Assembly (NCBI GenBank): GCA_003484955.1
Contig: DMZH01000002.1
Span: forward strand, 145,700-209,699
Source: Candidatus Woesebacteria bacterium
Lineage (GTDB): Bacteria > Patescibacteriota > Microgenomatia > UBA8517
Length of the DNA: 64,000 bases
Reading direction: 5' to 3'
Each line of letters starts with the position of its first letter. Positions within the stretch are counted from its first letter, which is position 1. Positions 8,871 to 37,912 of the stretch are shown piece after piece. Position numbers and translations under genes: made by a program. The notes under the pieces are model-generated. The model was given only the letters and a program-made list of their open reading frames with translations. It searched no databases and had not been told where the DNA came from.

Positions 8871-8871
8871 T

Positions 8872-11394: not shown

Positions 11395-11499
11395 AATTTT
11401 CGGACAACATGAACCACTTTATGTTTAAAAGAGGGGCGTGTCAATATTTTTAAGTTAACTGTTGGGTGGTATAATCTAAAGTTTAAGGAGTAATCACCA

Positions 11500-22560: not shown

Positions 22561-23723
22561 ATAGTTTATTTTCGCTGCAAAGCGTATTTCTTTTTTTGTT
22601 TTTGGCCCTTTTTCCTTTCGGACAAATTATCAGGTTAAGTTTTAATATAGGCAGTTTAAATATACCTCTTCAGCCTATCGACGTTGTGGTTGGATTAGGG
22701 GCGCTTTATTCAATTTTATTTGAAAAAGAAAAACCAAAAGTTTACAAATACCTTAAATATTTTTTGGTAGCTGCGGGTTTCTCATTCATTTTGTCGGTAT
22801 TCATTTTTAAGTACGAAGTTCTTTATGGCCTATTTTATCTGGTCCGTATTGTCGCTTATACATTCTTTTTAAATTATGTTTGGAATTTTGCTAAAAAAAG
22901 CTCTACCAACGGCCATTTACTTTCAAGCAGTCTTTTGACGATTTCGGTTATCTCGGCAGTTTTTGGTTGGATTCAACTTTTTGTTTTTCCGGATATTAAG
23001 CCATTTTTTGTTTACGGTTGGGATATGCACTTGTTCCGCCTGGTGGGCACTTTCCTGGATCCCACATTTTTGGGCCTAATTATAGTTTTCGGATTGTTGC
23101 TATCGATCAATCGATTCATTGATAGTAGAGAAAAAAAGTATTTATTAATTACAGTATTCCTTTTGGTGTCTCTGGCATTTACCTATTCAAGAGCCAGCTA
23201 TCTGGCATTTTTGGGGGGTATCTTTGTCATCGCTTTTACGGAAAAGAAGTTTAGAAAAATGATGGTTTTGGCGATTGCCCTTTTGGTTTTTGCTTTACTC
23301 TTGCCGACGGCAAGAAACCACAGCATAGAGCTGACACGTTCATTTAGTATTATTGCCAGGTTGGACAATTATAAGGAGACAGTTGAGGTGTTTAAAAAAT
23401 TCCCCGTATTTGGAGTCGGGTTTAATAATCTTTGTATAGCCAGAAATAAATATATCGGAATGGAGTCTTTTACCTCTCATGCATGTTCGGGGTCCGACTC
23501 AAGTTTGCTTTTGATTCTTGCAACAACCGGCACAATAGGCCTGATGGTATTCGCGGGAAGCATCCTTGGAGTATTCAAATCTCTAACCGAAAATCGTGAA
23601 GCACAAACTGTAATTGCGGTATCTATGGCACTGTTTATTCATAGTCTGTTTTCCAATTCCTTGTTTTTCCCTTGGGTAATGGGGTATGTTGTAATTCTTC
23701 TTGCGGTCAGCGTTACGAAGTAA
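22521..23723 (+). CDS. O-antigen ligase / polymerase-like membrane protein (Wzy_C-like)
   Basis: Polytopic membrane protein with a periplasmic loop TYSRASYLAFLGG typical of the O-antigen ligase family. Confidence 0.5.
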   Translation: MGKTMGITKKIKLDSLFSLQSVFLFLFLALFPFGQIIRLSFNIGSLNIPLQPIDVVVGLGALYSILFEKEKPKVYKYLKYFLVAAGFSFILSVFIFKYEVLYGLFYLVRIVAYTFFLNYVWNFAKKSSTNGHLLSSSLLTISVISAVFGWIQLFVFPDIKPFFVYGWDMHLFRLVGTFLDPTFLGLIIVFGLLLSINRFIDSREKKYLLITVFLLVSLAFTYSRASYLAFLGGIFVIAFTEKKFRKMMVLAIALLVFALLLPTARNHSIELTRSFSIIARLDNYKETVEVFKKFPVFGVGFNNLCIARNKYIGMESFTSHACSGSDSSLLLILATTGTIGLMVFAGSILGVFKSLTENREAQTVIAVSMALFIHSLFSNSLFFPWVMGYVVILLAVSVTK

Positions 23724-24444
23724 AGTTGAGGCTTATATTTTTTTCAGTAGTATTTCCTGCTTGATCGGTTGACTTTACATTAAAGGTATTCGAGCCTTCA
23801 TTTAGGGTCGTAGTATATTGAAAAATTCCCGAATCGTCAACTGAAATAATTCTGTCATTAATTGTAACTTTGGCGTCAGTTTCGGTCTTTCCTGTGATTG
23901 TAATTTGTCTTTGATTGGATCCAAAATAGCTGGAACCGTCTGAGGGTGAAGTTATTTCCAAATCAGGTGTTTTCTTGTCAAAAGTTATTTGATGGTCATC
24001 TGATTTTTGGCTTTGGTTTCCCGATTGATCGGTGGCGGTTGCCGCAAAAGTATTTATTCCATCCTGCAAGGTTACGCCAAACGAAAATTGTCCATCGTTG
24101 TCAGCCAAGACCTCTTGAGGACTTCCATTAAAAGTAAGTTTTACTGAGGCTCCCGATTCCGTATTACCTGTCAATGTCAGGGTTTGTTGGTTAGTGAATT
24201 CCGGAAAATATTTAAATTTAGGGGGTGGGGGCGGTGTAAAATCGGAGTTGCTGATTTTATTGTTATTACCTCTAAGACTGGAGACAAGTGAGGCAAGTCT
24301 GCCAAGAGCCGGTATTCCGATAAAATAAAGTATCGCAATGGCGGCAATTGTCAGCAATATATAAAAAGTAGCGCTTCTTGTGTTTTTTCTCTCCTCGGAA
24401 TTTATAAACCTTCTTGTAAACTTTTTCATTTTATTTTTGAGCAT
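23713..24444 (-). CDS. Membrane-anchored surface protein with two bacterial Ig-like (Big) domains
   Basis: N-terminal TM anchor, a PPPPP linker, and repeated TLTGNTESGASVKLTFNG...DQSGNQS / ITITGKTETDAKVTIND...DQAGNTT modules. The start codon lies inside the left 187-bp inverted repeat. Confidence 0.5.
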   Translation of the reverse strand: MLKNKMKKFTRRFINSEERKNTRSATFYILLTIAAIAILYFIGIPALGRLASLVSSLRGNNNKISNSDFTPPPPPKFKYFPEFTNQQTLTLTGNTESGASVKLTFNGSPQEVLADNDGQFSFGVTLQDGINTFAATATDQSGNQSQKSDDHQITFDKKTPDLEITSPSDGSSYFGSNQRQITITGKTETDAKVTINDRIISVDDSGIFQYTTTLNEGSNTFNVKSTDQAGNTTEKNISLNFTS

Positions 24445-24625
24445 GTTTATAATTTAGCTCGAACTCATTTTACAACAAAATACTAACAATTACATTTGCG
24501 TCAAGAAAAGGGGTTAAAGGGGAAATGAATTGACGCGAATGTCGTGTTGTCGCTCAGTCCCGCTTCGCGGGACTTCGCTAACTCTGTTCTCTTGCTCGCT
24601 CCTTTCAGTCGCTCGCAATACGCCA
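24439..24625. repeat. Left copy of a perfect 187-bp inverted repeat (IR187-L)
   Basis: Identical over all 187 nt to the reverse complement of 34539-34725. Contains the hairpin AGTCCCGC-TTCG-GCGGGACT. Confidence 0.9.
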
Positions 24626-25137
24626 AATGGTAAAGGGGTTATTTGTACAACCTTTGGTTGCTCAACATTTTCTCCGTTGCAAAAGTTTTCTGTAATCCGA
24701 GTATTTGCCCACCCACCCTAGAAAGGAGTTGGCGCTGCCCCCTCTGCACTCGCTAGGGCCCCCTATGGGCGGCCTTGCCGATGTTTTACTTTTGTTTATC
24801 TAAGTGTTCAGTATCTTCCTCGCCTCGTGCAAAAAACATTTGCCCCTTCGGGGTTGCACTCGGCTTTTCTCAAACACTTTTAAGTAGCGTTGCTCGTTCC
24901 GGGGGGCGTTCCTTTTTTTCCGCCCCCGCGCTTTTATTTTTTCCCTTTTCGCGCGTGGTCGGCGGAAACCTGCTTCGCAGGATAGCGCCAATGCAGGGAA
25001 CAGAAAACCAATAGGCCAAAATGGTGGAAATTGGCCGATTCTAGCTTCAAATTGGACAAAATCTAAAACAAAGAAGCTTCCACAGTTTTACTTCACAAAC
25101 ACTTCGCTTTAGTACAAGAGCGAAGTATACTAACTGT
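24626..25137 (+). ncRNA. Candidate structured noncoding RNA (GC-rich, several UUCG-tetraloop hairpins); identity unknown
   Basis: This ~510-nt stretch has no credible ORF and is far more GC-rich than the rest of the window. Hairpins CCCC-TTCG-GGGG (24844-24854), CCTGC-TTCG-GCAGG (24969-24981) and GGGGGGCG...CGCCCCC are present. The IR hairpin CCCGC-TTCG-GCGGG lies upstream. Confidence 0.25.
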
Positions 25138-25776
25138 ATGGCAGACGACACACCACAAGACACTACAACAACTCAAGACACACCTGCAGATCAACCAGTA
25201 GTTCAACCCGAACCACCGAAAGTCGAGGAGACTCCTGACGAAATTCCACCAACTGAAACTTCAGCAGAAGAAAAACCAACACCAACAGAAGAACCCAAAC
25301 CAGAAAATCCTCCCGAAGTTCCTGAAATTCCCCGAACTCCCGAAACATCCAAGGAGGAAACTAAAACAGAAGAGAAACCAACAGAAACAAAAGCAGAAGA
25401 ACTAAAAACAGACGAGAAACCCAAAGACGTGTCCGCCGAAGTCTCGACGAAGGTGGAAGAAGTTAAACCAGAAGTACCCGCTCCCGAATCTCCCAAACAA
25501 CCCGAAAAACCTATACCCGCCGAAACTTCAGTGAAGGAGGGCCAACCAAACCTTGACGACTTAAGAGACAAAGCAAACAAAGAGAGACAAGACAGAAAAC
25601 AGGAACATTTATCAGAAGTTGAGAAGTTAGCTAAATCAAAACAAATTAACAATGATGATGTCCGTGAGCTTTTGCACGTTTCCCAAAGTACAGCAACAAA
25701 TTATCTGGAAGAATTGACCAAACAGGGGAAAATCAAGAAGTCTGGGAAGGCAAAAGCTACTTCGTACTCTTCTTAA
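25138..25776 (+). CDS. Acidic low-complexity (P/E/T/K-rich) protein with a C-terminal winged-HTH DNA-binding domain
   Basis: About 150 aa of PEPK/TPTEE-type disordered repeats, then DVRELLHVSQSTATNYLEELTKQGKIKKSG (wHTH). Confidence 0.45.
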   Translation: MADDTPQDTTTTQDTPADQPVVQPEPPKVEETPDEIPPTETSAEEKPTPTEEPKPENPPEVPEIPRTPETSKEETKTEEKPTETKAEELKTDEKPKDVSAEVSTKVEEVKPEVPAPESPKQPEKPIPAETSVKEGQPNLDDLRDKANKERQDRKQEHLSEVEKLAKSKQINNDDVRELLHVSQSTATNYLEELTKQGKIKKSGKAKATSYSS

Positions 25777-26053
25777 CTTTAGTTGTGATTAGTTTAAATC
25801 CGCCTTTACCAAATTTAATAACTTGGCCTATTTTACTTATTGTGGAGGAGCTAACAGGAATTAACTTTTCAATTTCCTCATATGTTTTATCAGCTAGGAT
25901 ATAGTTTGCAATCTTGATTCGTTGGGCAAAATCCAAAGTTTCCTCATCTGTAAATAGATCTTGAATAAATAAGGCCAAATTATTTTTAGTCTTAACTTTG
26001 TAAAACGAATCAACCAGAAGTTCTTGGTCTTTACCCAGTGCCACTTTTGCCAT
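25757..26053 (-). CDS. TrpR-like YerC/YecD family protein
   Basis: 98 aa with the Trp-repressor-like fold signature LFIQDLFTDEETLDFAQRIKIANYILADKTYEEIEKLIPVSSSTISKI. Confidence 0.5.
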   Translation of the reverse strand: MAKVALGKDQELLVDSFYKVKTKNNLALFIQDLFTDEETLDFAQRIKIANYILADKTYEEIEKLIPVSSSTISKIGQVIKFGKGGFKLITTKVKKSTK

Positions 26054-26109
26054 AATTAACTATATCACGTTAATCCAATCAATTAAATAATTTCTGTCAG
26101 TCATATTTC

Positions 26110-26138
26110 TTGACAAAGTAATTCTTTTCATTTAATAT
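26110..26138 (+). promoter_or_regulatory. Sigma70-like promoter candidate (TTGACA-17-TAATAT)
   Basis: TTGACA at 26110-26115, a 17-nt spacer, and TAATAT at 26133-26138. Confidence 0.35.
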
Positions 26139-26261
26139 GAATTGACCGTTTGATACGGCGCACTTTTAAACAGATATTTATTTTCTTATTTGGAAATCGA
26201 CAGTTGTTTAATTACAACTAAGTACAGGGTAACTTGTACATTAAGGTATTTTTTTAATACC

Positions 26262-26286
26262 GCAGATGAAAATCTGCCGCTTTTTT
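26262..26286 (+). terminator. Rho-independent terminator candidate (GCAGAT-GAAA-ATCTGC then CCGC TTTTTT)
   Basis: A 6-bp stem with a GNRA loop followed by a T6 tract, ~125 nt downstream of the promoter candidate. Confidence 0.35.
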
Positions 26287-26482
26287 CCGGGACATGCACA
26301 GCAAGATGTATATGCATTAAGTTATGTGTCATTGCCAGGATCACAGGCATAATGGGGCTAAGATATGACAGTAGAAATATCGTGGCACGTCAGAAATATT
26401 TAAGGAGGCTCAAGATCTTTCTTTTAGGATTTCCTTTTTAAGACGGGCACTTGGCATTTTTGCCAGGTTAGAAAGGATAAAT

Positions 26483-26680
26483 ATGCTGAAAAAGTACAAC
26501 CAACTTATTAGTCTTATTGATGAGTTGGCCAAAGACGAAGATCTGAAGCCAGGTAAAAAGGATATACTTAAGAGGGCATTGAAGGAACTGTTCCACGCTC
26601 TTGATACTAAAAATATCAAAGGTGTGAGAAAAGCAATCGATCAGCTCTCAAAAGAACTGCTAATTGTTTACCATCCTTAA
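26483..26680 (+). CDS. Small helical hypothetical protein (65 aa), first gene of the RT/R-M cluster
   Basis: ORF with a good RBS-like context (AGGATAAATATG); no motif recognised. Confidence 0.3.
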   Translation: MLKKYNQLISLIDELAKDEDLKPGKKDILKRALKELFHALDTKNIKGVRKAIDQLSKELLIVYHP

Positions 26681-26713
26681 TTATTTCCATAAGGACCCGT
26701 TTGACGGATTTTT

Positions 26714-27043
26714 ATGGAAGTACCTATTATGAACTACGGAAAAGCACTCAAAATTGCACGCTCCGCGCGAAACATTTCTCAGAAAGATTTAAGTGATGCT
26801 ATTAGTTTGGATCCAAGCTATATTTCGCTTATAGAAAAAGGTAAAAGAATACCGACTATCGAAACTCTTGAGAAAATTGTAAAAAGTCTCAATATCCCAA
26901 TACATCTGTTTTTTCTATTGGCATCTGGCAAGAATCAAATGAAGAAAATGCCGTCTAGTAAAAAGGCGGGGGTAGCAGAGTTGTTGTTGGATCTTCTTCT
27001 TTCCACTGAAAAAAATGAGCACTCTCCAAAAAACAAAAATTAA
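26714..27043 (+). CDS. XRE-family helix-turn-helix transcriptional regulator
   Basis: ISQKDLSDAISLDPSYISLIEKGKRIPTIETLEKIVKSL matches the Cro/C1 HTH. The 3' end overlaps the RT start by 29 nt. Confidence 0.7.
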   Translation: MEVPIMNYGKALKIARSARNISQKDLSDAISLDPSYISLIEKGKRIPTIETLEKIVKSLNIPIHLFFLLASGKNQMKKMPSSKKAGVAELLLDLLLSTEKNEHSPKNKN

Positions 27044-27992
27044 ATCAGTTGCTGAACTTTCGCAAACTCTAAAGGTTGGTGTTAAGGAATTCGTCAAAAC
27101 CGCTAAAAATGCAAATTTGTTTTATAGACCATTTGATCTTAGCAAAAAAGGATCTGAAAAATGGAGACACATAGATAATCCAACAGGCAAACTCAAAATA
27201 ATCCAAAAGGCTATAAACAAACAAATTTTGCGCGACTTAATGTTTCAACTTCCACCTAATATCATGGGTGGTATCGAGAACAAATCTATTCTTGAAAATG
27301 CCAAAGTACACGTTGGACAAGAAATGGTTGTCACGATAGATATCAAAAATTGCTTTCCTAAAACAAAAAATGAGGTCATCTTTACCATCTGGAAAAATTT
27401 ATTGGGATTCGAGCCGAATAGTGCAAGGTTATTAACCCAATTAACTACAACAAAGGGACACCTACCTCAAGGTTCCCCTGCGAGTCCATCTTTATCAAAT
27501 CTTGCCCTACTTCCGATTTCAAAAGAAATTTTGAATTATTCAAAAAAACATCATTTGAACTTTACTATATATGTTGACGATATTACATTATCCGGAAAGA
27601 AAAGTTCAGCATTAGATTCAATTAGCCCAGTTGTTAAAATCATTCAAAAATATGGCTATGCAATAAGAAATAAGAAAGTTAAAAAAATGCCTTCATATAA
27701 AACTCAAACGACAACAGGAATCCAACTAAACTCTGAAATTTCCATTGGAAAGCAGAAGATTGATGAAATTAGGAAGGAAATAATTAATCTTGCCAAACTA
27801 CAAAAGCCGTATATCACTAAAAAATCAATTTTTAGCAAAATTGATTATGTAAAAAAAATTTCGCCAGAAAAAGGACAAAAACTACTAGAGTTTGCCAATA
27901 TGATATTGGAGGAAGATATTGATTATATTGCTGTTGATCCAGAAAAAGACGAAAAAAGAGATTGCAATGGAAAGGCCTGCCTAGCTAAATAG
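27015..27992 (+). CDS. Reverse transcriptase, retron-type (no maturase or endonuclease domains)
   Basis: RT motif 1/2 TIDIKNCFPKT, motif 4 LPQGSPASPSLSNLAL (retron-like LPQGAPTSPxLSNL), motif 5 YVDDITLSG, and a downstream TTGIQLN that matches the retron VTG region; 325 aa. Confidence 0.7.
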   Translation: MSTLQKTKIKSVAELSQTLKVGVKEFVKTAKNANLFYRPFDLSKKGSEKWRHIDNPTGKLKIIQKAINKQILRDLMFQLPPNIMGGIENKSILENAKVHVGQEMVVTIDIKNCFPKTKNEVIFTIWKNLLGFEPNSARLLTQLTTTKGHLPQGSPASPSLSNLALLPISKEILNYSKKHHLNFTIYVDDITLSGKKSSALDSISPVVKIIQKYGYAIRNKKVKKMPSYKTQTTTGIQLNSEISIGKQKIDEIRKEIINLAKLQKPYITKKSIFSKIDYVKKISPEKGQKLLEFANMILEEDIDYIAVDPEKDEKRDCNGKACLAK

Positions 27993-28052
27993 GTCAATTA
28001 CTTCGCTTTAGTACATTCGTACAAGAGCAAAAAGTGCTAAAATACACACATA

Positions 28053-30320
28053 ATGGCTAATTCATTAAATCTTTCTGACAACGAAAAGCGAGATATTATT
28101 AAATTTTTACAAGAAGGCAAATCTCTTCCTGAAAAATATAGATTTCTTCTTTTTAATGACGATCGTGAAGTTGAGCTTTTGTGGAATGGTAAAACAAATG
28201 AAGTTACTAATGTAGTATTGCCCTTTCAGGTAATAGAGCAAATTGACGAGCCAAGAAGTGATGCCAAATTCGGAATGCAAAACACACTTTTTGATACTAC
28301 TGGTCGACAAATTACAGGGTGGACAAATAAACTTATTTGGGGCGACAACAAATTAATACTTTCTTCACTCAAAAATGGTCCACTTCGAAAAGGAATTGAA
28401 GCACAAGGCGGTATAAAGTTGATTTACATTGACCCGCCCTTTGACGTTGGTGCTGACTTTTCAATGAATATAGAAGTTGGAGAAGATAGTTTTACCAAAA
28501 AACCCTCTGTAATTGAGGAAATTGCATATAGGGATACTTGGGGCAAAGGTGCAGATAGTTTTATTGCAATGATTTATCAAAGATTAAAATTGATGCACGA
28601 TTTATTGGCTAACGATGGAAGTATCTATGTCCATTGCGATTGGAGATTAAATAGCTATATGCGTTTAATCCTTGATGAAATTTTCGGTAAAGAAAATTAT
28701 AGAAATGAAATTGTTTGGAAACGCACATATTCTACAAAAGCACAGAGTATTAGCTTTGGTAAAACTCATGAACTTATTTTGTTTTACGCAAAAAGTGAAA
28801 GTACTAAATTAAAACAACTTTATCAAAAGCCAGATGAAGGGTATGTAGATAAATATTTTAATAAAACGGACGAAAATGGCAAAAAGTATCAATCTTTAAG
28901 CTTAACCCAACAAGGACAAGGACCAGCTAGATATTTTGGAGACAAACTAATAGAACCGACTAAGGGAATGCATTGGATTTGGTCGCAGGATAGAATCACT
29001 AAAGCTTTTCAAGAAGGTAGAATAGTTTTTACTAAAAATGATTTTCCAAGACTTAAAAAATACCTTGAGGATTGGAATGAACAAGGTCGTCCAATTGATG
29101 GTCTTTGGGTGGATGATGAAGTCGGGCCTCTAAACTCGTGGCACAGTGAATCACTCGATTATCCAACTCAAAAACCTGAATCGATGCTCACTCGCATAAT
29201 TCAATCCAGCAGTAATGAGGGAGATTTGGTTGCAGATTTTTTCTGTGGATCGGGAACAACACTTGCAGTTGCTGAAAAATTGAATAGAAAGTGGATAGGG
29301 TCTGATCTGGGAAAATTTGGAATACATACAACAAGAAAAAGAATGATAGGAGTGCAAAGAGAACTTAAGAAAGATGGCAAAGATTTTAGAGCTTTTGAAA
29401 TATTAAATGTTGGTAAGTATGAAAGAGATAGTTATCTAACAACAAATGATGATTTGAGAGCTGAAGAAAGAATAAAGCAAGCAGAAAGGAAAGAAAAAGA
29501 ATTCGTAAAACTTATTGTTACTGCCTATAAAGCAGAACTCATTGAATCATTTGTAAATATTGTAGGTAAAAAACGAGATAGACTAATTGCGGTTGGTCCA
29601 ATAAATACTCCTGTATCCTCTAAGTTTATTCAACAAGTAGTAAATGAATGCAAAGATAAAAATTTAACTAAAGTAGATATTTTAGGTTTTGACTATGAAA
29701 TGGGTATGAACATTGAGGAATATAGAAGTCAAAGTATTGATATTGTTTTTAAGGTAATTCCGAGAGAAGTTTTTGATAAACAAGCTGTAGAAAAAGGACA
29801 AGTTAAGTTTTACGATGTCGCATATATTGACGCAAAACCAGTTGTAAAGGGTGGAGCTAAAAGCAAGGAGTTGTCCATCGAGCTTACTGACTTTTCAGTT
29901 TTTTATAACCAAGATGCGAGTGATGATGTTTCTGAAAGTTTAAGACCTGGTGGAACAAAAGTTGTTGTTGAAAATGGACAAGTTGTTAAATTAACAAAAG
30001 ATAAAGAGTCTGATGTTGTATCAAAAGAAGTTTTAACTAAAAAATGGAGTGACTGGATTGATTATTGGGCAGTTGATTATAATTTTTCTGATAGAAAAGA
30101 AGTAATAATTGACCAAGACGATAAAGGTGAATATGTTGAGGCTTGGACAGGGGACTATATTTTTGATAACGAATGGCAAAGTTTTAGAACAAATAAAAAT
30201 AGAAATCTTGAATTAACTTCAACTCCAAGAGAAATGATAAAAGGAAATTATAAAGTTGCTGTTAAAGTTGTTGATATTTTTGGCAATGATACAACTAAAA
30301 TTATTGAGGTAAATATTTAA
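28053..30320 (+). CDS. mod: Type III restriction-modification Mod subunit (beta-class N6-adenine/N4-cytosine DNA methyltransferase)
   Basis: Motif IV IYIDPPF precedes motif I DFFCGSGTTLAVAEKLNRKWIGSDL (order IV-TRD-I); 755 aa. Confidence 0.75.
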   Translation: MANSLNLSDNEKRDIIKFLQEGKSLPEKYRFLLFNDDREVELLWNGKTNEVTNVVLPFQVIEQIDEPRSDAKFGMQNTLFDTTGRQITGWTNKLIWGDNKLILSSLKNGPLRKGIEAQGGIKLIYIDPPFDVGADFSMNIEVGEDSFTKKPSVIEEIAYRDTWGKGADSFIAMIYQRLKLMHDLLANDGSIYVHCDWRLNSYMRLILDEIFGKENYRNEIVWKRTYSTKAQSISFGKTHELILFYAKSESTKLKQLYQKPDEGYVDKYFNKTDENGKKYQSLSLTQQGQGPARYFGDKLIEPTKGMHWIWSQDRITKAFQEGRIVFTKNDFPRLKKYLEDWNEQGRPIDGLWVDDEVGPLNSWHSESLDYPTQKPESMLTRIIQSSSNEGDLVADFFCGSGTTLAVAEKLNRKWIGSDLGKFGIHTTRKRMIGVQRELKKDGKDFRAFEILNVGKYERDSYLTTNDDLRAEERIKQAERKEKEFVKLIVTAYKAELIESFVNIVGKKRDRLIAVGPINTPVSSKFIQQVVNECKDKNLTKVDILGFDYEMGMNIEEYRSQSIDIVFKVIPREVFDKQAVEKGQVKFYDVAYIDAKPVVKGGAKSKELSIELTDFSVFYNQDASDDVSESLRPGGTKVVVENGQVVKLTKDKESDVVSKEVLTKKWSDWIDYWAVDYNFSDRKEVIIDQDDKGEYVEAWTGDYIFDNEWQSFRTNKNRNLELTSTPREMIKGNYKVAVKVVDIFGNDTTKIIEVNI

Positions 30321-33011
30321 ATGGCATTACATAAAGATTTTCCAAAAGATCCGTACGCAATACTTGACCCTTCGATCAGGTGGTTTCCTGCTGACGAAGT
30401 CTTAAGAGAAAAAGGATATGATAAATTACTTCCACCACTCGTTGCTGATCTCCGAAAAAAAGTAAAAGAATGGAGAGATAAAAATTATGAAGGTGCGAGT
30501 GAAACTTCACAATCACTTTTGAATTGGTGGTTTAAGGAAGATCATGTTGTATACGATCAACATGGTGTTTCTTCAAATTTTAGATATTACTTTGCGCAAA
30601 GAGAAGCTTTAGAAACTGTCATATGGCTTTATGAAGTTGCCAAGGTAAAAGATAAATACGATCTAATTAGATACAACTCAACTCAAGTATTAAGTGCGGG
30701 TATGTTTACTGAGGATTGGTTAAGATTTGTAATCAAAATGGCAACAGGAGCAGGAAAGACAAAAGTTATGAGTTTAATTATTGCTTGGGCATATTTTCAT
30801 AGAAAATATGAGTTAGATTCTAATCTTTCAAAAAACTTTCTATTAATTACTCCAAATGTAATAGTATTTGAAAGAATCAAAAATGACTTTGAAGGTCTAA
30901 AGATATTTTTTACAGATCCGGTTTTACCTGATAATGGATATAATGGTCAAAATTGGCAAGATGATTTTCAATTAACATTACACTTACAAGATCAGTTAAG
31001 TACCATTTCAGATACCGGAAATATATTTTTAACTAACATACACAGAGTTTTTGAAGGAAATATTAAAGAAGCGAGTTTAGATGACGAAGATGTTTCTTCG
31101 TACTTCTTAGGTCGTAAACCAGTTACAAAAACTAACGATTCGACAGTTGACCTTGGTATGATTGTTCGAGATATTGATGAACTGATTGTTATAAATGATG
31201 AAGCCCACCATATACACGATGAAAATATGGTTTGGTATAAATCTATACTTGATATTGACAACAAGTTAAAACAAAAAGGATCAGGTCTCGCACTTCAATT
31301 AGATCTAACAGCCACTCCAAAAAAGAATGATGGCTCGATATTCGTGCAGGTAATATCTGACTATCCTTTAGTCGAAGCAATTCATCAAAGAATTGTCAAA
31401 AATCCAGTAATACCTGATGGGGCAAGTCAGGGGAAATTAAAGGAAAACCAAAGTATTTTGTTTAGTGAAAAATATAGAGACTATATTAATCTTGGAGTTG
31501 AAGAATGGAGGAAAACATATAAAACCTTAGAACCGATGGGTAAAAAATCAATTTTATTTATAATGACGGATGATACAAAAAACTGTGATGAAGTAGCTGA
31601 ATATATTAAAACAAGTTTTTCTGATCTTCGCGATGCAGTTTTAACAATCCACACTAATAAAAGCGGAGAGATTTCAGAAAGCGTTGGTGGTAAAAACGAA
31701 GAAGATTTAATACTTCTCCGAAAACAAGCTAATGAAATTGATAGTTGGGAAAGTCCTTTCAAAGTAATAGTTTCTGTAATGATGCTTAAAGAAGGCTGGG
31801 ATGTAAAAAACGTAACTACTATTGTAGGTCTTAGACCTTACGCAGCGGATTCAAAGATTCTTCCAGAACAAACGCTTGGTAGAGGTTTAAGGAGAATGTT
31901 TTTTGGCAGAGATGATGTTGAAGAATATGTAAGTGTAATTGGTACCACCGCTTTTATGGAATTTGTTGAATCAATTCAAGGGGAGGGTGTAATGCTTGAG
32001 CGAAAAGCTATGGGTGCAGGATCAAAGCCAATTACACCTGCAGTTATTGAAGTTGATAAGGAAAATCCAAATAAAAATATTGAAAAACTTGATATAGAAA
32101 TACCTGTAATGACTCCAAGAATCCAAAGGGAATATAAAAATCTTGCCAATTTAGATGTTTCTCAATTTGGAAATAAGAAAGTAAGTGTAAAGACTTTCTC
32201 AGAACAAGAAAAAAGAGAAATTATTTTCAAAGATGTTGTTGACGAAAAAATACATCATACAACTGTACTAACTGGCGATATTGAACCAGATTATAGAAGT
32301 GTAATTGGTTTTTTTGCCCAAGCTGTAATGAGAGAACTTAGGCTTTTTGGTTGTTATGACATTTTGTTTGAAAAAGTAAAGGAATTTATCGAGAAATATT
32401 TATTTGATATTACAGTTGATTTATCAGATCTCAATATATTAAGAAACTTGTCAGAAGTAGAATATATAAAATTTATTAAAGACACATTCAAAGATGCCAT
32501 TAATAACTTAACAATTCAAGATACTGGAGACACTGAAATCAAAAATTATATTAAAATTAGTGAAGCAAGACCATTTGTTGTTAATGATAAATCATATTTA
32601 ATTCCAAAAAAATCAGTATTTAATAAAATTGTAGGAGATAGTAATTTTGAACTTACTTTTGCTGATTTTCTTGAAAACTGTGAAGATGTAATTTCATTTT
32701 CCAAAAATTATCAAAACAAAGAAGCGAGTGCATTAAGAATTGAATATAAAAATTCAGAAGGGTTAATCGCAAACTATTATCCAGACTTTTTCGCAAAATT
32801 GGATGATAAAACTGTTTACATAATTGAAACAAAAGGCCGAGAGGAAGATGATGATAAACTAAAATTTGAAAGATTACAAAAATGGTGCATCGATGTAAAC
32901 AGTCGTCAAACAAAAGTGGAATATAAATCTCTATATATTAAGCAAGAAGAATGGGAAAATAATAAATTAAAAAATTTTGACGAGGTTGTTAGGTTATTTA
33001 CATCTATTTAA
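30321..33011 (+). CDS. res: Type III restriction enzyme Res subunit (SF2 DEAH helicase plus C-terminal PD-(D/E)xK endonuclease)
   Basis: Walker A ATGAGKTKVM, motif II VINDEAHH, helicase C region VSVMMLKEGWDVKNV, and a C-terminal YYPDF...VYIIETKG nuclease motif. The start abuts the mod stop. Confidence 0.75.
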   Translation: MALHKDFPKDPYAILDPSIRWFPADEVLREKGYDKLLPPLVADLRKKVKEWRDKNYEGASETSQSLLNWWFKEDHVVYDQHGVSSNFRYYFAQREALETVIWLYEVAKVKDKYDLIRYNSTQVLSAGMFTEDWLRFVIKMATGAGKTKVMSLIIAWAYFHRKYELDSNLSKNFLLITPNVIVFERIKNDFEGLKIFFTDPVLPDNGYNGQNWQDDFQLTLHLQDQLSTISDTGNIFLTNIHRVFEGNIKEASLDDEDVSSYFLGRKPVTKTNDSTVDLGMIVRDIDELIVINDEAHHIHDENMVWYKSILDIDNKLKQKGSGLALQLDLTATPKKNDGSIFVQVISDYPLVEAIHQRIVKNPVIPDGASQGKLKENQSILFSEKYRDYINLGVEEWRKTYKTLEPMGKKSILFIMTDDTKNCDEVAEYIKTSFSDLRDAVLTIHTNKSGEISESVGGKNEEDLILLRKQANEIDSWESPFKVIVSVMMLKEGWDVKNVTTIVGLRPYAADSKILPEQTLGRGLRRMFFGRDDVEEYVSVIGTTAFMEFVESIQGEGVMLERKAMGAGSKPITPAVIEVDKENPNKNIEKLDIEIPVMTPRIQREYKNLANLDVSQFGNKKVSVKTFSEQEKREIIFKDVVDEKIHHTTVLTGDIEPDYRSVIGFFAQAVMRELRLFGCYDILFEKVKEFIEKYLFDITVDLSDLNILRNLSEVEYIKFIKDTFKDAINNLTIQDTGDTEIKNYIKISEARPFVVNDKSYLIPKKSVFNKIVGDSNFELTFADFLENCEDVISFSKNYQNKEASALRIEYKNSEGLIANYYPDFFAKLDDKTVYIIETKGREEDDDKLKFERLQKWCIDVNSRQTKVEYKSLYIKQEEWENNKLKNFDEVVRLFTSI

Positions 33012-33698
33012 ATGTATAAACTTTCACCATCAGATTTTGCATATTTATACGAGGAATGTAAGCTTTGCTATTACTTAAAGATTAAACATGGAATATACCA
33101 ACCAAGCATGCCAATGCCTGGAGTTTTTTCTGCAATAAATACTCGACTTCAAGGAAATTTGGTTGGTAAAAATCTTCACACGCTTTCAGAAAAGTTGCCA
33201 GATGGGATCGTTGAAAATCAAGAAGGTTGGGTTGAATCAAAACCAGTTCCTGATACGGAAGTATTTATAAAAGGCAAATACGATTTATTAGTTAAACTTC
33301 CTGATGACACGCACCTATTGGTTGATCTAAAAATTAGCACACCGGGGGATGATAAAATTGAAAAATATAAAACTCAACTTAATGCCTACAAATTTGCTCT
33401 TGAAAATCCAGCTAACGGAAACCCTATAAAATTAACAAGGCTTGGACTTTTGATTTTTTATCCAGACCAAGTTAGTTTTGAGAAAGGAAGTGCTACCCTA
33501 ACTTTTCCTCCAAGCTGGTTAGAGGTTCCTGCTGATCAAACAGGATTTTTAGCTTTTGCAAAAAGAATAGATAAATTACTTTCGGGTCCAACACCAGAGG
33601 AGGGAAAAGAATGTAAATGGTGCAAATATAGACATTTGGGAGATACCCTTTCTCATACTGATACTGGAAGTGTGAAGGATGACACAATTCCATTTTAA
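33012..33698 (+). CDS. Cas4/RecB-like PD-(D/E)xK nuclease with four Cys (probable Fe-S cluster), not CRISPR-linked
   Basis: N-terminal CKLC, core GKYDLLV ... LLVDLKIS (D...D-x-K), a QLNAY (QxxxY) motif, and a C-terminal CKWC. The start abuts the res stop. Confidence 0.55.
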   Translation: MYKLSPSDFAYLYEECKLCYYLKIKHGIYQPSMPMPGVFSAINTRLQGNLVGKNLHTLSEKLPDGIVENQEGWVESKPVPDTEVFIKGKYDLLVKLPDDTHLLVDLKISTPGDDKIEKYKTQLNAYKFALENPANGNPIKLTRLGLLIFYPDQVSFEKGSATLTFPPSWLEVPADQTGFLAFAKRIDKLLSGPTPEEGKECKWCKYRHLGDTLSHTDTGSVKDDTIPF

Positions 33699-33946
33699 GG
33701 AGTTAACTTTGGTGTTGTACAACAGTGAAGTATATTGACAATTTGCCACCAAATGGTAACAATGGTATTATACTTCTCCAATGACTAAAACTAACAAATC
33801 TCAACCAACTAAAAAAGCAGTTTATTTTATTGCTACAAAATATAAAAATAGGCAGACTCGTGTCAGTCTATATACAAAAGACTGGAAAAGTGTCGCTAAA
33901 AGCGATGCTACGGATAAACTCGGATATTCATTAGAATAACTTCTCC

Positions 33947-34459
33947 ATGGGTAAGAAAAATAAATCTCCGTTAACCCCAATGGATTTTCAGTTGGGTTCT
34001 GGAGGCGTCATTCCCTCCACCCAGGAAGCTTTTGGACCAAACAAAGAATTCTCTGGAAATATACGAAAAGAAGAAAGCGGCGCGACTGCAGAATTTAAAA
34101 AAGCTCTTGGTACCCAGATAGATGTCGAAATTGGTGAGTTGAAACAGTTCCCTTCGGATAAGGAGTTTTTTGTGTTTATAATTCAATACTTTGTTTCAGA
34201 CAAAGAATATAAGGCCAGAGACCTGGACAATATGGCTAAAACCATGCTGGACTTATTGAAAGGAAGATTTTATAAAGACGATGGACAAGTTAAGACACTC
34301 TTAGTTGGTAAGAAGATGGAAAAACGTGTTCCTAAAAATTTTATATATTTTGCATTAAAAGAAATGAAGGATGACAGAGATATTGATGCCCTGAAGATTT
34401 CCGGGCTAGAAAGATCAGTCACTCTTTTCAATGAACAAGTGGCAAAAGGACTTTGCTGA
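33947..34459 (+). CDS. rusA: RusA-like Holliday junction resolvase (phage-type)
   Basis: ARDLDNMAKTMLDLLKGRFYKDDGQVKTLLVGKK matches the RusA motif DLDNxxKxxLDxLxGxxxxDDxQV...K. Confidence 0.55.
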   Translation: MGKKNKSPLTPMDFQLGSGGVIPSTQEAFGPNKEFSGNIRKEESGATAEFKKALGTQIDVEIGELKQFPSDKEFFVFIIQYFVSDKEYKARDLDNMAKTMLDLLKGRFYKDDGQVKTLLVGKKMEKRVPKNFIYFALKEMKDDRDIDALKISGLERSVTLFNEQVAKGLC

Positions 34460-34538
34460 TACTAAAAATTGGCTTCAATTGTATAAAATAGTTATTCGAT
34501 TTTTTAATTGAGTATTTTATATTATCAATAGGCACGAG

Positions 34539-34725
34539 TGGCGTATTGCGAGCGACTGAAAGGAGCGAGCAAGAGAACAGAGTTAGCGAAGTCCCGCGAA
34601 GCGGGACTGAGCGACAACACGACATTCGCGTCAATTCATTTCCCCTTTAACCCCTTTTCTTGACGCAAATGTAATTGTTAGTATTTTGTTGTAAAATGAG
34701 TTCGAGCTAAATTATAAACATGCTC
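34539..34725. repeat. Right copy of the perfect 187-bp inverted repeat (IR187-R)
   Basis: The reverse complement of 24439-24625, with 187/187 identity. Confidence 0.9.
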
Positions 34726-34773
34726 CCAAGATAAATTTTTTGAAGAGGCGCGAAGCGCCGACCAAGCGAATTG
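34725..34773. repeat. 49-bp inverted repeat, copy a (IR49-a), immediately abutting IR187-R and upstream of the recombinase gene
   Basis: CCCAAGATAAATTTTTTGAAGAGGCGCGAAGCGCCGACCAAGCGAATTG is the reverse complement of 36275-36324 apart from a 1-nt indel. Confidence 0.85.
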
Positions 34774-34838
34774 ACACTCCACGGACTGATATTATTTGAG
34801 CTATTGCTTCGGGATAATTGCAAAGATATAAATAAGTA

Positions 34839-36386
34839 ATGGTAAATAAATTCTTCCTCTACGCCAGAAAGTCCACAGATGTAGAAGATATGCAGGTTCT
34901 TTCAATTGAAGCTCAAATTAATGAACTCCGTGAGTTAGCCAAGAAAGAAGGTTTAGAGATAGTAGATGAGCTAATTGAAAAGAAATCTGCAAAAAATCCC
35001 GGAAGGGTAATTTTTAATTCCATGCTTGATAGAATTGAAAAAGAAGAAGCTAATGGAATTATATCTTGGCACCCAGATAGACTTGCCAGGAATAGTGTGG
35101 ACGGAGGAAGAATTATTTACCTCTTAGATAGAAATAAATTATCTGCCCTCAAATTTAATACCTTTTGGTTTGAATCTACTCCTCAAGGAAAGTTCATGCT
35201 TAGTATTGCATTTTCTCAAAGTAAATATTATGTAGATTCCTTGTCAGAAAACACCAAAAGAGGACTTCGCCAAAAAGCTAAAAATGGATATTGCCCCAGT
35301 GTTGCCCCAATTGGTTATTTAAATGATTCAAGAAACAAAACTATTGTTTTAAATAAAAAAGTTGGTCCAATTATCAAAGAAACTTTTGAACATTATAGTA
35401 ACGGCAATATCCTAATGCGTGAAGTAAGTAGCTTTTTGGCTGAACGTGGAATACTTCTTCCTAGTGGTAGACCCTTCGGTCTTTCAAGAATTAGAAAAAT
35501 CTTAACAAATCCATATTATTATGGTCATTTTATATATGCGGGAGAAGTATATGAGGGCAGACACGACCCAATAATTTCAAAGCTACTTTTTGACAAAGTC
35601 CAAGAAATTATTAATAGAAAAAATAAACAGTGGAGTAAGGCTAGAGTAGAAAGAGTTCACAAGCCTTACGTTGGACTTTTGACGTGTGGTGAGTGCGGAA
35701 TGGGCATTACAGCTGATTTTAAAGATAGACATTATAAAAACGGCAATTGTAGCCATTTTAATTATTACAGGTGTACTAAAAAGGATAAAACTACAAAATG
35801 TCTACAATCCCATATCCGCGAGGAGGACTTGGATAGTCAGCTCACCACACTTCTCAAAAAGTACACTTTGAAAAATGCTTGGGCAATAAAAATGAATAAG
35901 AAACTAGATATTGAATCAAGAGATATTGCCCAATCATCCCTTTCTGTCATTTCTCTCAAGAGAAAAGAAATTGATAATTTGAATTCTAAACTCCAGCTTC
36001 TTTTAGACAGTTATTTAGATCAAATAACTGATAAAGAAATGTACAAAAAAAAGAAGCTTGAGTTATTCTCTCAAAAGAAAACTTTTGAGGAACAAATTAT
36101 CAATTTGCAAAACCAGAAAGGGAATTGGATCGAACCTATGAGAAAGTGGATATCCGAAGCAAGTGAAGTGGATCAAATAATATCAACAAACAATAAAGAC
36201 GATAAAAAGGTTCTCGCTTCAAAAATCTTCGGCTCGAACCTCTTTTTGGAAGACAAAAAAGTCCGTGGAGTAGGCCAATTCGCTTGGTCGGCGCTTCGCG
36301 CCTCTTCAAAAAATTTATCTTGGGAGCCGAGAGTGGGGATCGAACCCACGACCTGCGGTTTACGATACCGCCGCTCTGCCAACTGA
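34839..36386 (+). CDS. Large serine recombinase (resolvase catalytic domain, recombinase domain and zinc ribbon)
   Basis: N-terminal FLYARKSTDVEDMQ...Q with the catalytic Ser in YxRxST, the resolvase core GIISWHPDRLARN, a recombinase domain, and a Zn ribbon CGECGMG...C...YYRC. The 3' end reads ~60 nt into tRNA-Thr (...GIEPTT...). Confidence 0.75.
   Translation: MVNKFFLYARKSTDVEDMQVLSIEAQINELRELAKKEGLEIVDELIEKKSAKNPGRVIFNSMLDRIEKEEANGIISWHPDRLARNSVDGGRIIYLLDRNKLSALKFNTFWFESTPQGKFMLSIAFSQSKYYVDSLSENTKRGLRQKAKNGYCPSVAPIGYLNDSRNKTIVLNKKVGPIIKETFEHYSNGNILMREVSSFLAERGILLPSGRPFGLSRIRKILTNPYYYGHFIYAGEVYEGRHDPIISKLLFDKVQEIINRKNKQWSKARVERVHKPYVGLLTCGECGMGITADFKDRHYKNGNCSHFNYYRCTKKDKTTKCLQSHIREEDLDSQLTTLLKKYTLKNAWAIKMNKKLDIESRDIAQSSLSVISLKRKEIDNLNSKLQLLLDSYLDQITDKEMYKKKKLELFSQKKTFEEQIINLQNQKGNWIEPMRKWISEASEVDQIISTNNKDDKKVLASKIFGSNLFLEDKKVRGVGQFAWSALRASSKNLSWEPRVGIEPTTCGLRYRRSAN
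36275..36324. repeat. 50-bp inverted repeat, copy b (IR49-b), inside the recombinase 3' coding region and ending 1 nt from the tRNA-Thr 3' end
   Basis: Reverse complement of 34725-34773 with one extra nucleotide. Contains the hairpin GGCGC-TTCG-(C)GCGCC. Confidence 0.85.
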
Positions 36387-36397
36387 GCTACCTCGGC
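36325..36397 (-). tRNA. tRNA-Thr (anticodon CGT)
   Basis: Manual cloverleaf on the minus strand: acceptor GCCGAGG/TCTCGGC (G7-U66 wobble), D-arm GCTC-AGTTGGCA-GAGC, anticodon stem GCGGT/ACCGC with loop ATCGTAA, T-arm GTGGG-TTCGATC-CCCAC, discriminator U. Confidence 0.8.
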
Positions 36398-36429
36398 TTA
36401 TGTGCTCAATTATAGCATTTCTGGGCGTG

Positions 36430-36500
36430 AGCGGGTGAGCGGAGTCGAACCGCCCTTTCCACCTTGGGAAGGTGGCGTTGAGCCGATCAACTACACCCGC
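36430..36500 (-). tRNA. tRNA-Gly (anticodon CCC)
   Basis: Manual cloverleaf: acceptor GCGGGTG/CACCCGC, D-arm GTTG-ATCGGCT-CAAC, anticodon stem CCACC/GGTGG with loop TTCCCAA, T-arm GGCGG-TTCGACT-CCGCT, discriminator U. Confidence 0.75.
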
Positions 36501-36567: not shown

Positions 36568-37134
36568 TTATCTGGGTAAAATTAGAATGTTTCCCGTATG
36601 AATTATATTAGGGTTATCTAATTCGTTTACCTCTGCAATTTCAGTCCATCTGAAACCATCTCCATAGGCTCTGACTGCTATATTCCACAGGCTGTCTCCT
36701 TTAACTACTGTGTAGGTCTCGCTTGTTATCGGCGATTCTTGTAAAACAGTTTGAGATTCAGATTCCTCTGTTGTTGTAGGTTCGTTTGGTGTGACATCAT
36801 CAGGTAAGATTAACTTTTGTCCAATCTCAATATTATCTGTCTCTAAATTATTGGCACTTTTTATGTCTACCCAGTTATATCCGGAACCATACGAATTTTC
36901 TGCAATCGACCATAGTGTTTCACCTTCTACTACAGTGTGTTCGTTAATAGCTGATGTCTGGGTTGAGTCTACCGTAATACTGCCGTTTCCCTTGTCTTTA
37001 AAGTAATTTACAACCAAGACTCCAACTATAACAAGAACAATTGCCCCTAAGATCATGCTAATATTTTCCTCGTTAAGTTTTATTTGTTTGAGAAGTTTTT
37101 TTAGTTGAAAACTGTTATTTTGATCAAATTTCAA
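36568..37134 (-). CDS. LysM domain protein (N-terminal TM anchor, two LysM repeats)
   Basis: LysM repeats at TVVEGETLWSIAENSYGSGYNWVDIKSANNL...IGQKLILP and YTVVKGDSLWNIAVRAYGDGFRWTEIAEVNEL...TGNILILP. Confidence 0.7.
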   Translation of the reverse strand: MKFDQNNSFQLKKLLKQIKLNEENISMILGAIVLVIVGVLVVNYFKDKGNGSITVDSTQTSAINEHTVVEGETLWSIAENSYGSGYNWVDIKSANNLETDNIEIGQKLILPDDVTPNEPTTTEESESQTVLQESPITSETYTVVKGDSLWNIAVRAYGDGFRWTEIAEVNELDNPNIIHTGNILILPR

Positions 37135-37225: not shown

Positions 37226-37489
37226 CGGGATCGACGAGATTCGGACTCGCAACCTCTTCCGTGCACCTTTTTGTTTCCAAAAAGTTTGGACTATCTCATC
37301 ATCCTAAAAATAGGAGCCAGGTATATAGTCTCTACACATTTACTACGTTCACATAAACTGAACGCAGCTTTAGCTCGGGATTGCCATCTTAAAGGTTTCC
37401 CCGAATTAGCCTGGTTTTACATTCCAGATCACTCTGGAACGCTGCCACAATCGACAGGGAAGCGCTCTAGCCAGTTGAGCTACGACCCC
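37226..37489 (-). tRNA. Split tRNA gene, probably tRNA-Asp(GTC), with a ~190-nt intervening sequence (putative intron) in the anticodon loop
   Basis: The 5' half (37458-37489) is GGGGTCG-TA-GCTC-AACTGGCTA-GAGC-G-CTTCC, followed by loop nts CTGT.... The 3' half (37226-37260) is GGAAG-AGGTT-GCGAG-TCCGAAT-CTCGT-CGATCCC-G. The halves pair into a canonical cloverleaf only if 37261-37457 is removed. The predicted mature loop is CTGTCAC, and the intervening sequence ends in G. Confidence 0.5.
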
Positions 37490-37501: not shown

Positions 37502-37912
37502 TTACCAGTAATAGTCTTTAGCCGCAATTACACCTTTTTCTTGGTTATTTTTTGATTTTTCTATTCTTATACTTAGTTTCTTTTTACCAACAAAAATAGC
37601 TTTTGGGAAAAAGCATAATTTATCAATTTTTGGAATATACACGATCAGGGCGTCAACCTCATTTTTCTTGTATGTATAAGTATTTTTTCTTCTGTCAACA
37701 TACTCAAGTTTTACAACAACAGATCCATGCGTATTTGAAGGTTTTCCGTTGGCATATTTTACTTGTAAGCGGGAGAGACGAAGACCATCATCAATAATTA
37801 AATCATATCGGGCATCAAACAAAGGTCTGCTGGGCAAATATCCCAATTCAAATGCTCTTAACTCGGCCTTACTTACGGCCAATTGTCCTTTTGTGTTGGT
37901 GGTTGTCTTCAT
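37502..37912 (-). CDS. Hypothetical protein, possible PD-(D/E)xK (Hjc-like) nuclease fold
   Basis: Weak E...YDLIID...LQVKY pattern (E-D-QxK); 136 aa. Confidence 0.25.
   Translation of the reverse strand: MKTTTNTKGQLAVSKAELRAFELGYLPSRPLFDARYDLIIDDGLRLSRLQVKYANGKPSNTHGSVVVKLEYVDRRKNTYTYKKNEVDALIVYIPKIDKLCFFPKAIFVGKKKLSIRIEKSKNNQEKGVIAAKDYYW

Follow-up and report, generated by a model that had tools for sequence, protein, structure and literature searches.

Why should the gene for a large serine recombinase (LSR) lie between two long inverted copies of the same sequence, one upstream of its start codon and the other inside its own 3' coding region? The question is raised by a 64,000-nt stretch of contig DMZH01000002.1 (positions 145,700 to 209,699 of the forward strand; assembly GCA_003484955.1), here called the window, which comes from a Rifle groundwater population of Candidatus Woesebacteria (Patescibacteria, Candidate Phyla Radiation or CPR). 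The initial annotation, made from the sequence alone, had noticed the pair and offered two readings: an insertion sequence (IS)-like unit carrying only the recombinase, or recombination (att/inversion) sites. Our comparison with related loci favours a form of the second reading, in which the two arms would be copies of attachment (att)-site arms of an LSR-encoding island inserted at a tRNA-Thr gene, and the free form of the island would be a circle with two inverted attP sites, either of them usable. We give this reading a probability of roughly 0.72.

A long inverted repeat around the recombinase gene

A repeat search of the window returned a perfect inverted repeat of 52 nt (100% complementary), with arm a at 34722–34773 and arm b at 36276–36327. 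When one 2/4-nt indel is allowed, the arms extend to 34722–34787 and 36260–36327 (68 nt, 95.6%; 66/68 nt). The number of perfect 52-nt inverted repeats expected by chance in a 64-kb sequence of the window's composition is 9e-22. A larger inverted repeat is found at 24428–24625 and 34539–34736 (198 nt, 97% overall, exact from 24439 onward); it overlaps arm a by four exact nucleotides (GCTC, 34722–34725) and by 15 nt at lower identity. On the other side of the gene, arm b overlaps the end of tRNA-Thr by the last 3 nt (Rfam, 36325–36397) or 7 nt (ARAGORN, 36321–36398). The parts of this arrangement, with the assignments argued for below, are as follows.

34722–34787, plus strand: arm a (B'), assigned as the inner half of an internal attP; core GCTC at 34722–34725, perfect to 34773, hairpin GGCGCGAAGCGCC at 34747–34759
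34839–36386, plus strand: LSR gene, 515 aa (Pfam Resolvase, Recombinase and Zn_ribbon_recom)
36260–36327, plus strand: arm b (B), assigned as the P arm of attR (S3, B-GAGC-tRNA); core GAGC at 36324–36327, perfect over 36276–36327
36321–36398, minus strand: tRNA-Thr(CGT), assigned as the attB-derived half of attR (ARAGORN; Rfam, 63.8 bits); T-loop GGTTCGA 12 nt from the core

Most of what the initial annotation had said about the pair can be settled from these coordinates. It had described reverse complements of 49/50 bp that differ by one inserted nucleotide; the pair is real, but the extra nucleotide was a counting slip, as 34725–34773 exactly complements 36276–36324. It had arm a begin where the larger repeat, measured as 187 bp, stops; the two are indeed in contact, but they actually overlap, with GCTC (34722–34725) in common. 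The second copy was said to end 1 nt from tRNA-Thr, which the overlap of 3 or 7 nt contradicts. It was correctly placed in the C-terminal coding region of the recombinase: arm b lies inside the LSR open reading frame (ORF) from codon 480 of 515, the perfect arm spans codons 480–496, and arm b as a whole encodes residues ~475–496, including the invariant W483. The hairpin that had been seen in each copy is also there, as GGCGCGAAGCGCC at 34747–34759 in arm a and as its complement in arm b.

An assembly artefact, either a fold-back or a chimeric join at the repeat, has to be considered for any metagenome-assembled genome, which is the source of the window, and one related contig (L112, 1–2532; 2.5 kb, from a metagenome), in which the LSR gene lies between 476-nt perfect terminal inverted repeats, could be such a fold-back. 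For the window we regard this explanation as practically negligible. The same arrangement with identical sequence is present in eight contigs from different samples and assemblers. Three MEGAHIT contigs built at k=141 and one contig at k=127 read through both arms, and a k-mer size of 141 is greater than the arm length. The same architecture, built from different sequences, recurs in ~100 loci from many studies.

One island at the 3' end of tRNA-Thr

Three sites in the window share a core and were aligned on it: S1 is L-GAGC-A, S2 is A'-GCTC-B' (34539–34787), and S3 is B-GAGC-T (36260–36327 plus the tRNA), where L is the left flank and T the tRNA. The layout of the island is L-GAGC-[A - cargo - A'-GCTC-B' - LSR - B]-GAGC-tRNA, and the parts not listed above are these.

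23713–24429, minus strand: flank L, a chromosomal gene for an Ig-like surface protein, 238 aa from the second ATG (Pfam Big_13/Glucodextran_B)
24439–24442, plus strand: core copy 1 (GAGC) in the assigned attL (S1), placed by the start of S1/S2 identity and by the empty-site junction
24443–24625, minus strand: left-end arm A, an inverted copy of A' (assigned P' arm of attP), from the 198-nt repeat and an nhmmer match at 24441–24540 (E 8e-17)
24626–34538, plus strand: cargo M (Pfam, PADLOC)
34539–34721, plus strand: A' module, the non-coding outer half of the assigned internal attP (S2), conserved across loci

GAGC is the sole sequence common to S1, S2 and S3. S2 is the reverse complement of B-GAGC-A, that is, an inverted and intact copy of the attP that excision would create. 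When S1 is compared with inverted S2, identity begins exactly at GAGC, and to the left of it L is like the B arm at only 10 of 15 positions. As judged from these alignments, S1 is shown to correspond to attL, S3 to attR, and S2 to a complete second attP that is inverted and lies 65 nt upstream of the LSR start.

The core common to the three sites predicts that the ancestral empty site was L-GAGC-T. A lookup via the flanking Ig-like gene found this L-core-tRNA junction exactly in two contigs from the same aquifer, L012 and L015, where the flank L gene directly follows tRNA-Thr. The junction reads ...CATTTTATTTTTGAGC/CGAGAGTGGGG... (right side also given as CGAGAGTGGGGATCG), and the sequence up to and past the core is ...TTTTTGAGC/CGAGAG. 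Because the empty site lacks all 11.9 kb, the whole 24443–36327 segment is one insertion; the comparison shows a single 11.9-kb integrative island, with a 4-nt shared core, inserted at the 3' end of tRNA-Thr(CGT). Occupied and empty sites coexist in one groundwater population. The tRNA-Thr gene is intact by both ARAGORN and Rfam, the island replacing only sequence from the discriminator onward.

These results bear directly on the two readings that had been offered. According to the first, an IS-like 1.6-kb element with ~50-bp terminal inverted repeats carries nothing except the recombinase and inserted beside tRNA-Thr independently of the cargo. A single recombinase gene does lie between terminal inverted repeats, and numerous short LSR-only contigs exist; however, those contigs do not stop at the 52-nt arms but break off within tRNA genes and the 198-nt repeat. 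The empty site is without the cargo as well as the LSR gene, and what flanks arm a on its outer side is, in every relative, a conserved module of the element and not target DNA. Among ~110 loci we found neither a solo 1.6-kb unit nor an LSR-only (L-core-B') or cargo-only (A'-core-tRNA) intermediate. An independent IS-like unit is thus very improbable. The second reading, att or inversion sites, agrees well with the arms being LSR att-site arms, with the empty tRNA-Thr sites (which the initial annotation had proposed to look for, and which L012 and L015 provide) and with the occurrence of both orientations of the LSR segment in relatives. It had also been anticipated that recombination would fall within the recombinase ORF, and the core GAGC does lie in the LSR reading frame. 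The coincidence of so many boundaries had been called too exact for chance, and the core common to the three sites explains it.

The crossover in the window is limited to GAGC, where a palindromic GC is present as well as GA and AG. A palindromic-core model, in which the central GC would permit either orientation, is possible in the window, but in another locus, L033, a G/A difference puts the crossover in the non-palindromic CAA, which speaks against the model.

Conservation of the layout in relatives

A scan of species-representative genomes gave 26 relatives with 35–92% protein identity, of which the three most distant (Saccharibacteria, 35–38%) were partial matches and were left out of further analysis. 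The LSR gene was bracketed by a near-perfect inverted repeat of 55–157 nt in 15 of 15 genome-scan loci with enough flank, and in each of these the downstream arm ended 3–7 nt inside a tRNA gene on the opposite strand. A metagenome scan added 80 further loci (49–65% identity), most of them with the same repeat and tRNA pattern. The 3' end of the LSR gene overlaps a tRNA in 75 of the 83 loci in which that end is readable, covering 31 isoacceptors, and one genome has six copies at different tRNAs. An integrase gene between two inverted att sites, with the crossover in its own reading frame, is the layout of more than 70 relatives in Patescibacteria, and the scans show the design to be conserved in about 100 relatives.

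Arm sequences vary between loci; within a locus they are usually at least 98% identical (range 79–100%). The ~20–30 nt of B beside the core are hypervariable: close relatives differ there, and at times so do both arms of a single element (L046/L031, L127). Nested A...A' pairs surround a cargo of 1.1–10 kb in at least 17 elements. At an orthologous Ig-gene/tRNA-Thr site in another genome (L128), the same arms enclose other cargo (an EcoRI-like methylase and GmrSD). No cargo gene, directionality factor or replication gene was common to the 18 elements compared; the recurring "ORFs" among them span the A module only, and conservation across elements is confined to the LSR, the arms and the A' module. 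Minimal elements with A abutting A' (L055, L058, L074) were considered and rejected, as the adjacent plus- and minus-strand nhmmer matches were not palindromes.

Two relatives are of interest in their own right. L127 (P0126) has an LSR gene 89.6% DNA-identical to that of the window and the same right arm and GCTC core, and it sits at tRNA-Gly(TCC), not tRNA-Thr, suggesting that one attP type can use more than one core-sharing tRNA. L036 contains two complete nested elements that adjoin each other (2291–7467 and 8358–11557), at tRNA-Thr(GGT) and tRNA-Tyr. The left flank of the first element (2251–2287) is 89% B-arm-like, as if derived from a decayed third tandem element, and three 124-nt tandem repeats, each with a copy of the 5' part of the tRNA, lie beside tRNA-Thr(TGT) at 11745–12116.

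Flipped and double-attP forms

Not all relatives are in the state seen in the window. In L045 the order is flipped (tRNA-Val(+), B', LSR, B, A). The same element (95.5% identity) stands in the standard orientation in L027, at the orthologous tRNA-Val; between these two loci, host genes are no more than 76–81% identical. L104 is a second flipped locus. L046 matches the integrated L031 at 99.8% identity, but here the LSR gene runs into A, not into tRNA-Leu, and both attPs are intact; L125 is in the same double-attP state. The flipped and double-attP forms imply that S2-type sites do take part in recombination. The contig with 476-nt terminal repeats, L112, is either a minimal form of the double-attP state or an assembler fold-back. 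A closed circle of the element was not seen, though double-attP forms (L046, L125) and isomers occur.

From these forms, integration via either attP and inversion between S2 and S3 would each be expected to give the same product. One possible interpretation is that S2 and S3 are inversion sites like those of Hin, by which the LSR would invert its own gene in place and so switch both its promoter context and its C-terminal tail. S2 and S3 are truly inverted relative to each other, both orientations occur at the orthologous tRNA-Val loci (L027, L045) and in L104, and in L033, with its crossover in the non-palindromic CAA, recombination between them could only invert. However, the tRNA lies at the LSR 3' end in the 75 loci mentioned above and directly upstream of the gene in 2; a further 5 loci have an A tail, most of them without a resolved state. 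Opposite LSR orientations were seen only between different genomes (L027 vs L045), not within a sample, and in the window's population the k=141 contigs that span both arms have the LSR in a single orientation. The 75-to-2 skew and the single orientation in the window's population argue against a freely flipping switch. Moreover, S2 × S3 is attP × attR, a pair that canonical LSRs do not recombine (PMC11722253), and integration through the other attP yields an identical product. We consider a self-inverting switch unlikely, although it deserves to be kept in mind.

The cargo may also be found in both orientations. Orientation 1 was present in L001-3, L005, L009 and L010, and orientation 2 in L011, L013 and 10 similar contigs, but these assemblies are only suggestive, as the 198-nt arms exceed both k-mer and read length.

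The A' module

The outer half of S2 has two conserved parts.

34625–34669, plus strand, with a copy at 24495–24539, minus strand: A' stem-loop, TTCGCGTCAA / 25-nt C-rich loop / TTGACGCAAA
34700–34707, plus strand: A' T-loop mimic GTTCGAGC, which ends 14 nt before the GCTC core, with the GTTCGA hexamer 16 nt away

In all relatives the outer flank of arm a is conserved as TAAAATAAGTTCGAGC, followed by ~14 AT-rich nt and then the core. Arm A likewise contains the T-loop mimic (within 24457–24472) and the conserved stem-loop. The GTTCGA in A' is a match to the tRNA T-loop, and its distance to the repeat boundary is 16–17 nt in A' against 12–13 nt on the tRNA side. The offset is +4 at 33 of 42 loci; another 8 of the 42 scored −6 and are mis-picks of the motif pattern. 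In LSR structures, the motif bound by DNA-binding domain 2 (DBD2) is 5 bp (4 bp for SPbeta) nearer the centre in attB than in attP half-sites (PMC11722253). The +4 offset fits this spacing rule and makes A a half-site of the P type and the tRNA one of the B type. That the family has spread over many tRNAs would be explained by its recognition of the universal T-loop.

The stem of the A' stem-loop is 7–10 bp long, with at least 10 fully compensated variants, and the module is found in ~60 related loci. The stem closes a conserved C-rich loop (TTCCTTCCCC..ACCCC..TTCC), and its G-T wobble pairs are readable on the LSR-sense strand only. Rfam had no match for the A' module, its single-sequence fold was unexceptional (z = −1.2), and RNAalifold on a MAFFT alignment recovered one hairpin only, the stems being misaligned. 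The stem-loop has the look of a structured RNA or DNA element, so far undescribed, that goes with the LSR family. Two other candidates in the region were rejected: the TTGACG considered for a −35 box belongs to the compensated stem as its 3' strand, and a hairpin between the post-GTTCG sequence and the core showed apparent covariation in the first 15 loci that was gone in the larger set.

These features raise the possibility that the upstream copy is purely regulatory, with arm a and S2 serving as an operator or promoter for LSR self-repression, or as a 5' leader for base pairing to the complementary 3' end of the mRNA. The position of S2 65 nt ahead of the start codon suits this idea, as do the AT-rich, −10-like sequence directly ahead of the core in most loci and the conserved, structured upstream module whose compensated stems are readable on the LSR-sense strand; in a single transcript, the arms would pair as a duplex of 52–171 bp. 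The idea leaves unexplained, however, the flipped and double-attP forms with an S2-type site joined to a tRNA (L045, L104). RNA pairing tolerates G-U pairs and compensatory change, yet the arms are usually identical as DNA, and regulatory and recombination roles of S2 can coexist. That S2 is a regulatory copy and nothing else seems to us distinctly improbable.

The recombinase and its C-terminal tail

The LSR has a resolvase domain (PF00239, E 1e-23, residues 6–150), a Recombinase domain (DNA-binding domain 1, DBD1; PF07508, E 9e-15) and a zinc-ribbon (DBD2; PF13408, E 2e-9). Its best solved relative is the C-terminal domain of the A118 integrase (4KIS, E 8e-9, LSR residues 216–417). Residues R10 and S12 of the catalytic region are invariant in a 12-member family alignment, and residues ~340–440, considered for the coiled-coil motif inserted in DBD2, form a long stretch rich in K, E and L. 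Going by these domain matches, ORF 34839–36386 encodes a member of the LSR family. A phage origin was rejected, as a viral contig collection contained no relative of this LSR.

The last 19 LSR codons are antisense tRNA-Thr sequence. Because the ORF crosses the crossover point, the C-terminal tail is set by whatever sequence is joined there. On the B-core-A junction the computed tail is ...SWEHVYNLARTHFTTKY, giving a protein of 510 aa (predicted A-encoded tail HVYNLARTHFTTKY). Most LSR homologues end in an antisense-tRNA peptide, ..GIEP.. or ..GFEP... The tail ..ARTYFT.., the translation of the A motif, ends 3 of 127 homologues among the matches listed, and it fits the tail predicted for the LSR of the window.

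Further inside the gene, a second T-loop-like sequence was found at the DNA level.

36232–36240, plus strand: GGCTCGAAC, an inverted T-loop-like motif within the invariant FGSNL codons, conserved at synonymous sites

The codons of the FGSNL motif are nearly fixed (GGC 87/96, TCG 91/96, AAC 93/96); among the remaining Ser codons of these genes the share of TCG is 11%. Together GGC TCG AAC form an inverted GGTTCGAGCC motif 88 nt from the core. In a larger subfamily the inner boundary of the inverted repeat coincides exactly with this motif, and past it the left arm equals the right arm minus ~45 nt. A repeat that ends at the FGSNL motif, with a left arm ~45 nt shorter beyond it, indicates that the bracket arose long ago as an inverted duplication comprising the 3' end of the LSR gene and attP.

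Cargo and neighbouring genes

What the A arms enclose is a defence island. Its contents, and the tRNA gene next to the target, are as follows.

Within 24626–34538: a 212-aa winged helix-turn-helix (wHTH) protein and a Trp-repressor-like ORF (Pfam)
26714–27043 and 27015–27992, plus strand: type VI retron, with the helix-turn-helix (HTH) gene first (HTH_VI, E 9e-22) and the reverse transcriptase (RT) gene second (RT_VI, E 4e-69)
28053–30320 and 30321–33011: Mod and Res of a type III restriction-modification system (Pfam, PADLOC)
33012–33698: Cas4-like PD-(D/E)XK nuclease
33947–34459: RusA-like protein
36429–36500, minus strand: tRNA-Gly(CCC), the upstream neighbour of tRNA-Thr, given for context only (ARAGORN, Rfam)

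A GC-rich non-coding stretch beside the left A arm (24626–25100) might hold the msr/msd RNA of the retron. Outside the island, a group I intron is found at 37267–37470 on the minus strand (Rfam RF00028, 79 bits, E 5e-19), flanked on the same strand by ORFs for a LysM protein (36568–37134) and a PDDEXK_5 protein (37502–37912). The G+C content is ~0.28–0.38 over positions 14000–37000, compared with ~0.40–0.46 on either side, and has a local peak of 0.40–0.45 at 24–26 kb. This region of low G+C is larger than the integrase element, since its left end falls in polysaccharide-synthesis genes (glycosyltransferases, Wzy) ~10 kb before the island starts.

Discussion

The reading we favour is that arms a and b are copies of an att-site arm of the island. 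The free form would be a circle in which the cargo is separated from the LSR gene by two inverted attPs, and either attP would recombine with the attB in the tRNA. Use of the attP that overlaps the LSR 3' end would lead to the common state. S2 may in addition contain the promoter and leader of the LSR gene, and probably serves the LSR as an operator or binding site for autoregulation. The arms may be kept alike by gene conversion.

Several points weigh against this reading. Equal use of the two attPs predicts about equal orientations, and the tRNA is at the LSR 3' end in 75 of 83 loci and directly upstream in 2. The flipped or excised form of the window's element was not found: the protein cluster of 8 is without a 510-aa variant, though no scan was aimed at the flipped junction. 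L046 and L031 differ in ~20 nt of the core-adjacent B arm, a difference that a single crossover at the core leaves unaccounted for. Nor are the arms identical in every locus: identity falls to 86% in L127 and 88% in the double-attP forms, and conservative serine recombination alone cannot hold the arms identical. The promoter assignment in A' draws on −10-like sequence only; a promoter consensus scan gave no more promoter-like sites than shuffled sequence. Finally, recombination is inferred here by comparing assemblies, with no direct observation.

A more speculative extension is that these elements are self-contained, with an integrase that needs no separate directionality factor and with direction and expression encoded in cis via a tail swap, the second attP and T-loop mimicry. 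Integration would exchange the C-terminal tail, replacing the attP-encoded ..ARTYFT.. with ..G(I/F)EP.. from the antisense tRNA T-loop, the GTTCGA being read in two frames because of the 4-nt offset. The second, inverted attP together with the structured leader would permit entry into the tRNA in either orientation, or flipping like that of the 2-micron plasmid, and with T-loop mimicry the family would be naturally open to retargeting among all tRNAs. We offer this as a tentative possibility that is more likely to be wrong than right.

How does the island compare with known systems? The phage-type large serine integrases (Listeria A118/LI, SPbeta SprA, Bxb1, phiC31) have the same three domains, with A118 the best solved match, and likewise combine a short common core with half-sites that show a 4–5-bp shift of the outer motif. 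Unlike them, the island family targets the T-loop to 3' end of tRNAs (31 isoacceptors), has its crossover inside the integrase ORF, carries a second complete attP inverted upstream of the gene, and shows no conserved directionality factor or phage genes in 18 elements and no relatives in viral contigs.

Systems with inverted sites around a recombinase gene share features of its layout. Salmonella Hin/hix and Mu Gin/gix resemble the present case in that the recombinase gene lies within a segment bounded by inverted sites (Hin) and both orientations occur in nature. Hin and Gin are small serine recombinases that act on 26-bp sites with a Fis-dependent enhancer and switch frequently within a clone, whereas here a 515-aa LSR with Recombinase and Zn-ribbon domains, attP/attR-type sites and a strong orientation skew belong to an integrative island. 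The yeast 2-micron plasmid (FLP/FRT) is comparable to the circle we propose, being split by two inverted, target-bearing repeats, with the recombinase on one segment and with isomers. FLP is a tyrosine recombinase, and the 2-micron flip serves copy-number amplification of an autonomous plasmid; in our case there is no conserved replication gene among the 18 elements, and no circle was observed.

An attP inside an ORF, with integration altering the C-terminus, is also a feature of integration-dependent immunity in the mycobacteriophages BPs and Brujita. There the affected gene is the repressor, the recombinase is of the tyrosine integrase type, and the tail that is lost acts as a degradation tag, whereas here it is the integrase's own C-terminus that would be affected. 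Tn4451 (TnpX) and Tn5397 (TndX) are alike in having an LSR as their only mobility protein; they form a circular intermediate and need no separate directionality factor. To our knowledge, they have no long gene-bracketing inverted repeat and no tRNA targeting, and their ends are GA dinucleotides.

In lifestyle, there is a parallel with the tycheposons of Prochlorococcus, which are likewise small tRNA-inserted islands with variable defence or adaptive cargo and tandem accretion (here, L036). In tycheposons and related elements, 910 of 937 use tyrosine recombinases, and partial tRNA copies are left as repeats (bioRxiv 10.1101/2020.12.28.424599); unlike there, the common core here is just ~4–9 nt at the discriminator/CCA end. 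That paper mentions no inverted attP or recombinase-bracketing repeat, "inverted repeat" appearing in a reference title only.

The LSR protein family, the phage-type attP/attB action of its integrases and a tycheposon-like life as a tRNA island are thus already known. What appears to be new is the combination of targeting to the T-loop and 3' end, a crossover in the integrase ORF, a conserved, inverted second attP that brackets the gene, a structured leader and the lack of any conserved accessory gene; full-text literature searches found no published description of this combined architecture. The large serine integrases rank among the leading enzymes of genome engineering, and research is active on how they choose their sites and on their one-way action. 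The family described here amounts to ~100 natural attP/attB pairs on one scaffold, the tRNA T-loop and acceptor end, and the attP/attB spacing rule can be read straight from its sequences. For the biology of the CPR, it represents a widespread vehicle that moves retrons and restriction systems between reduced genomes.

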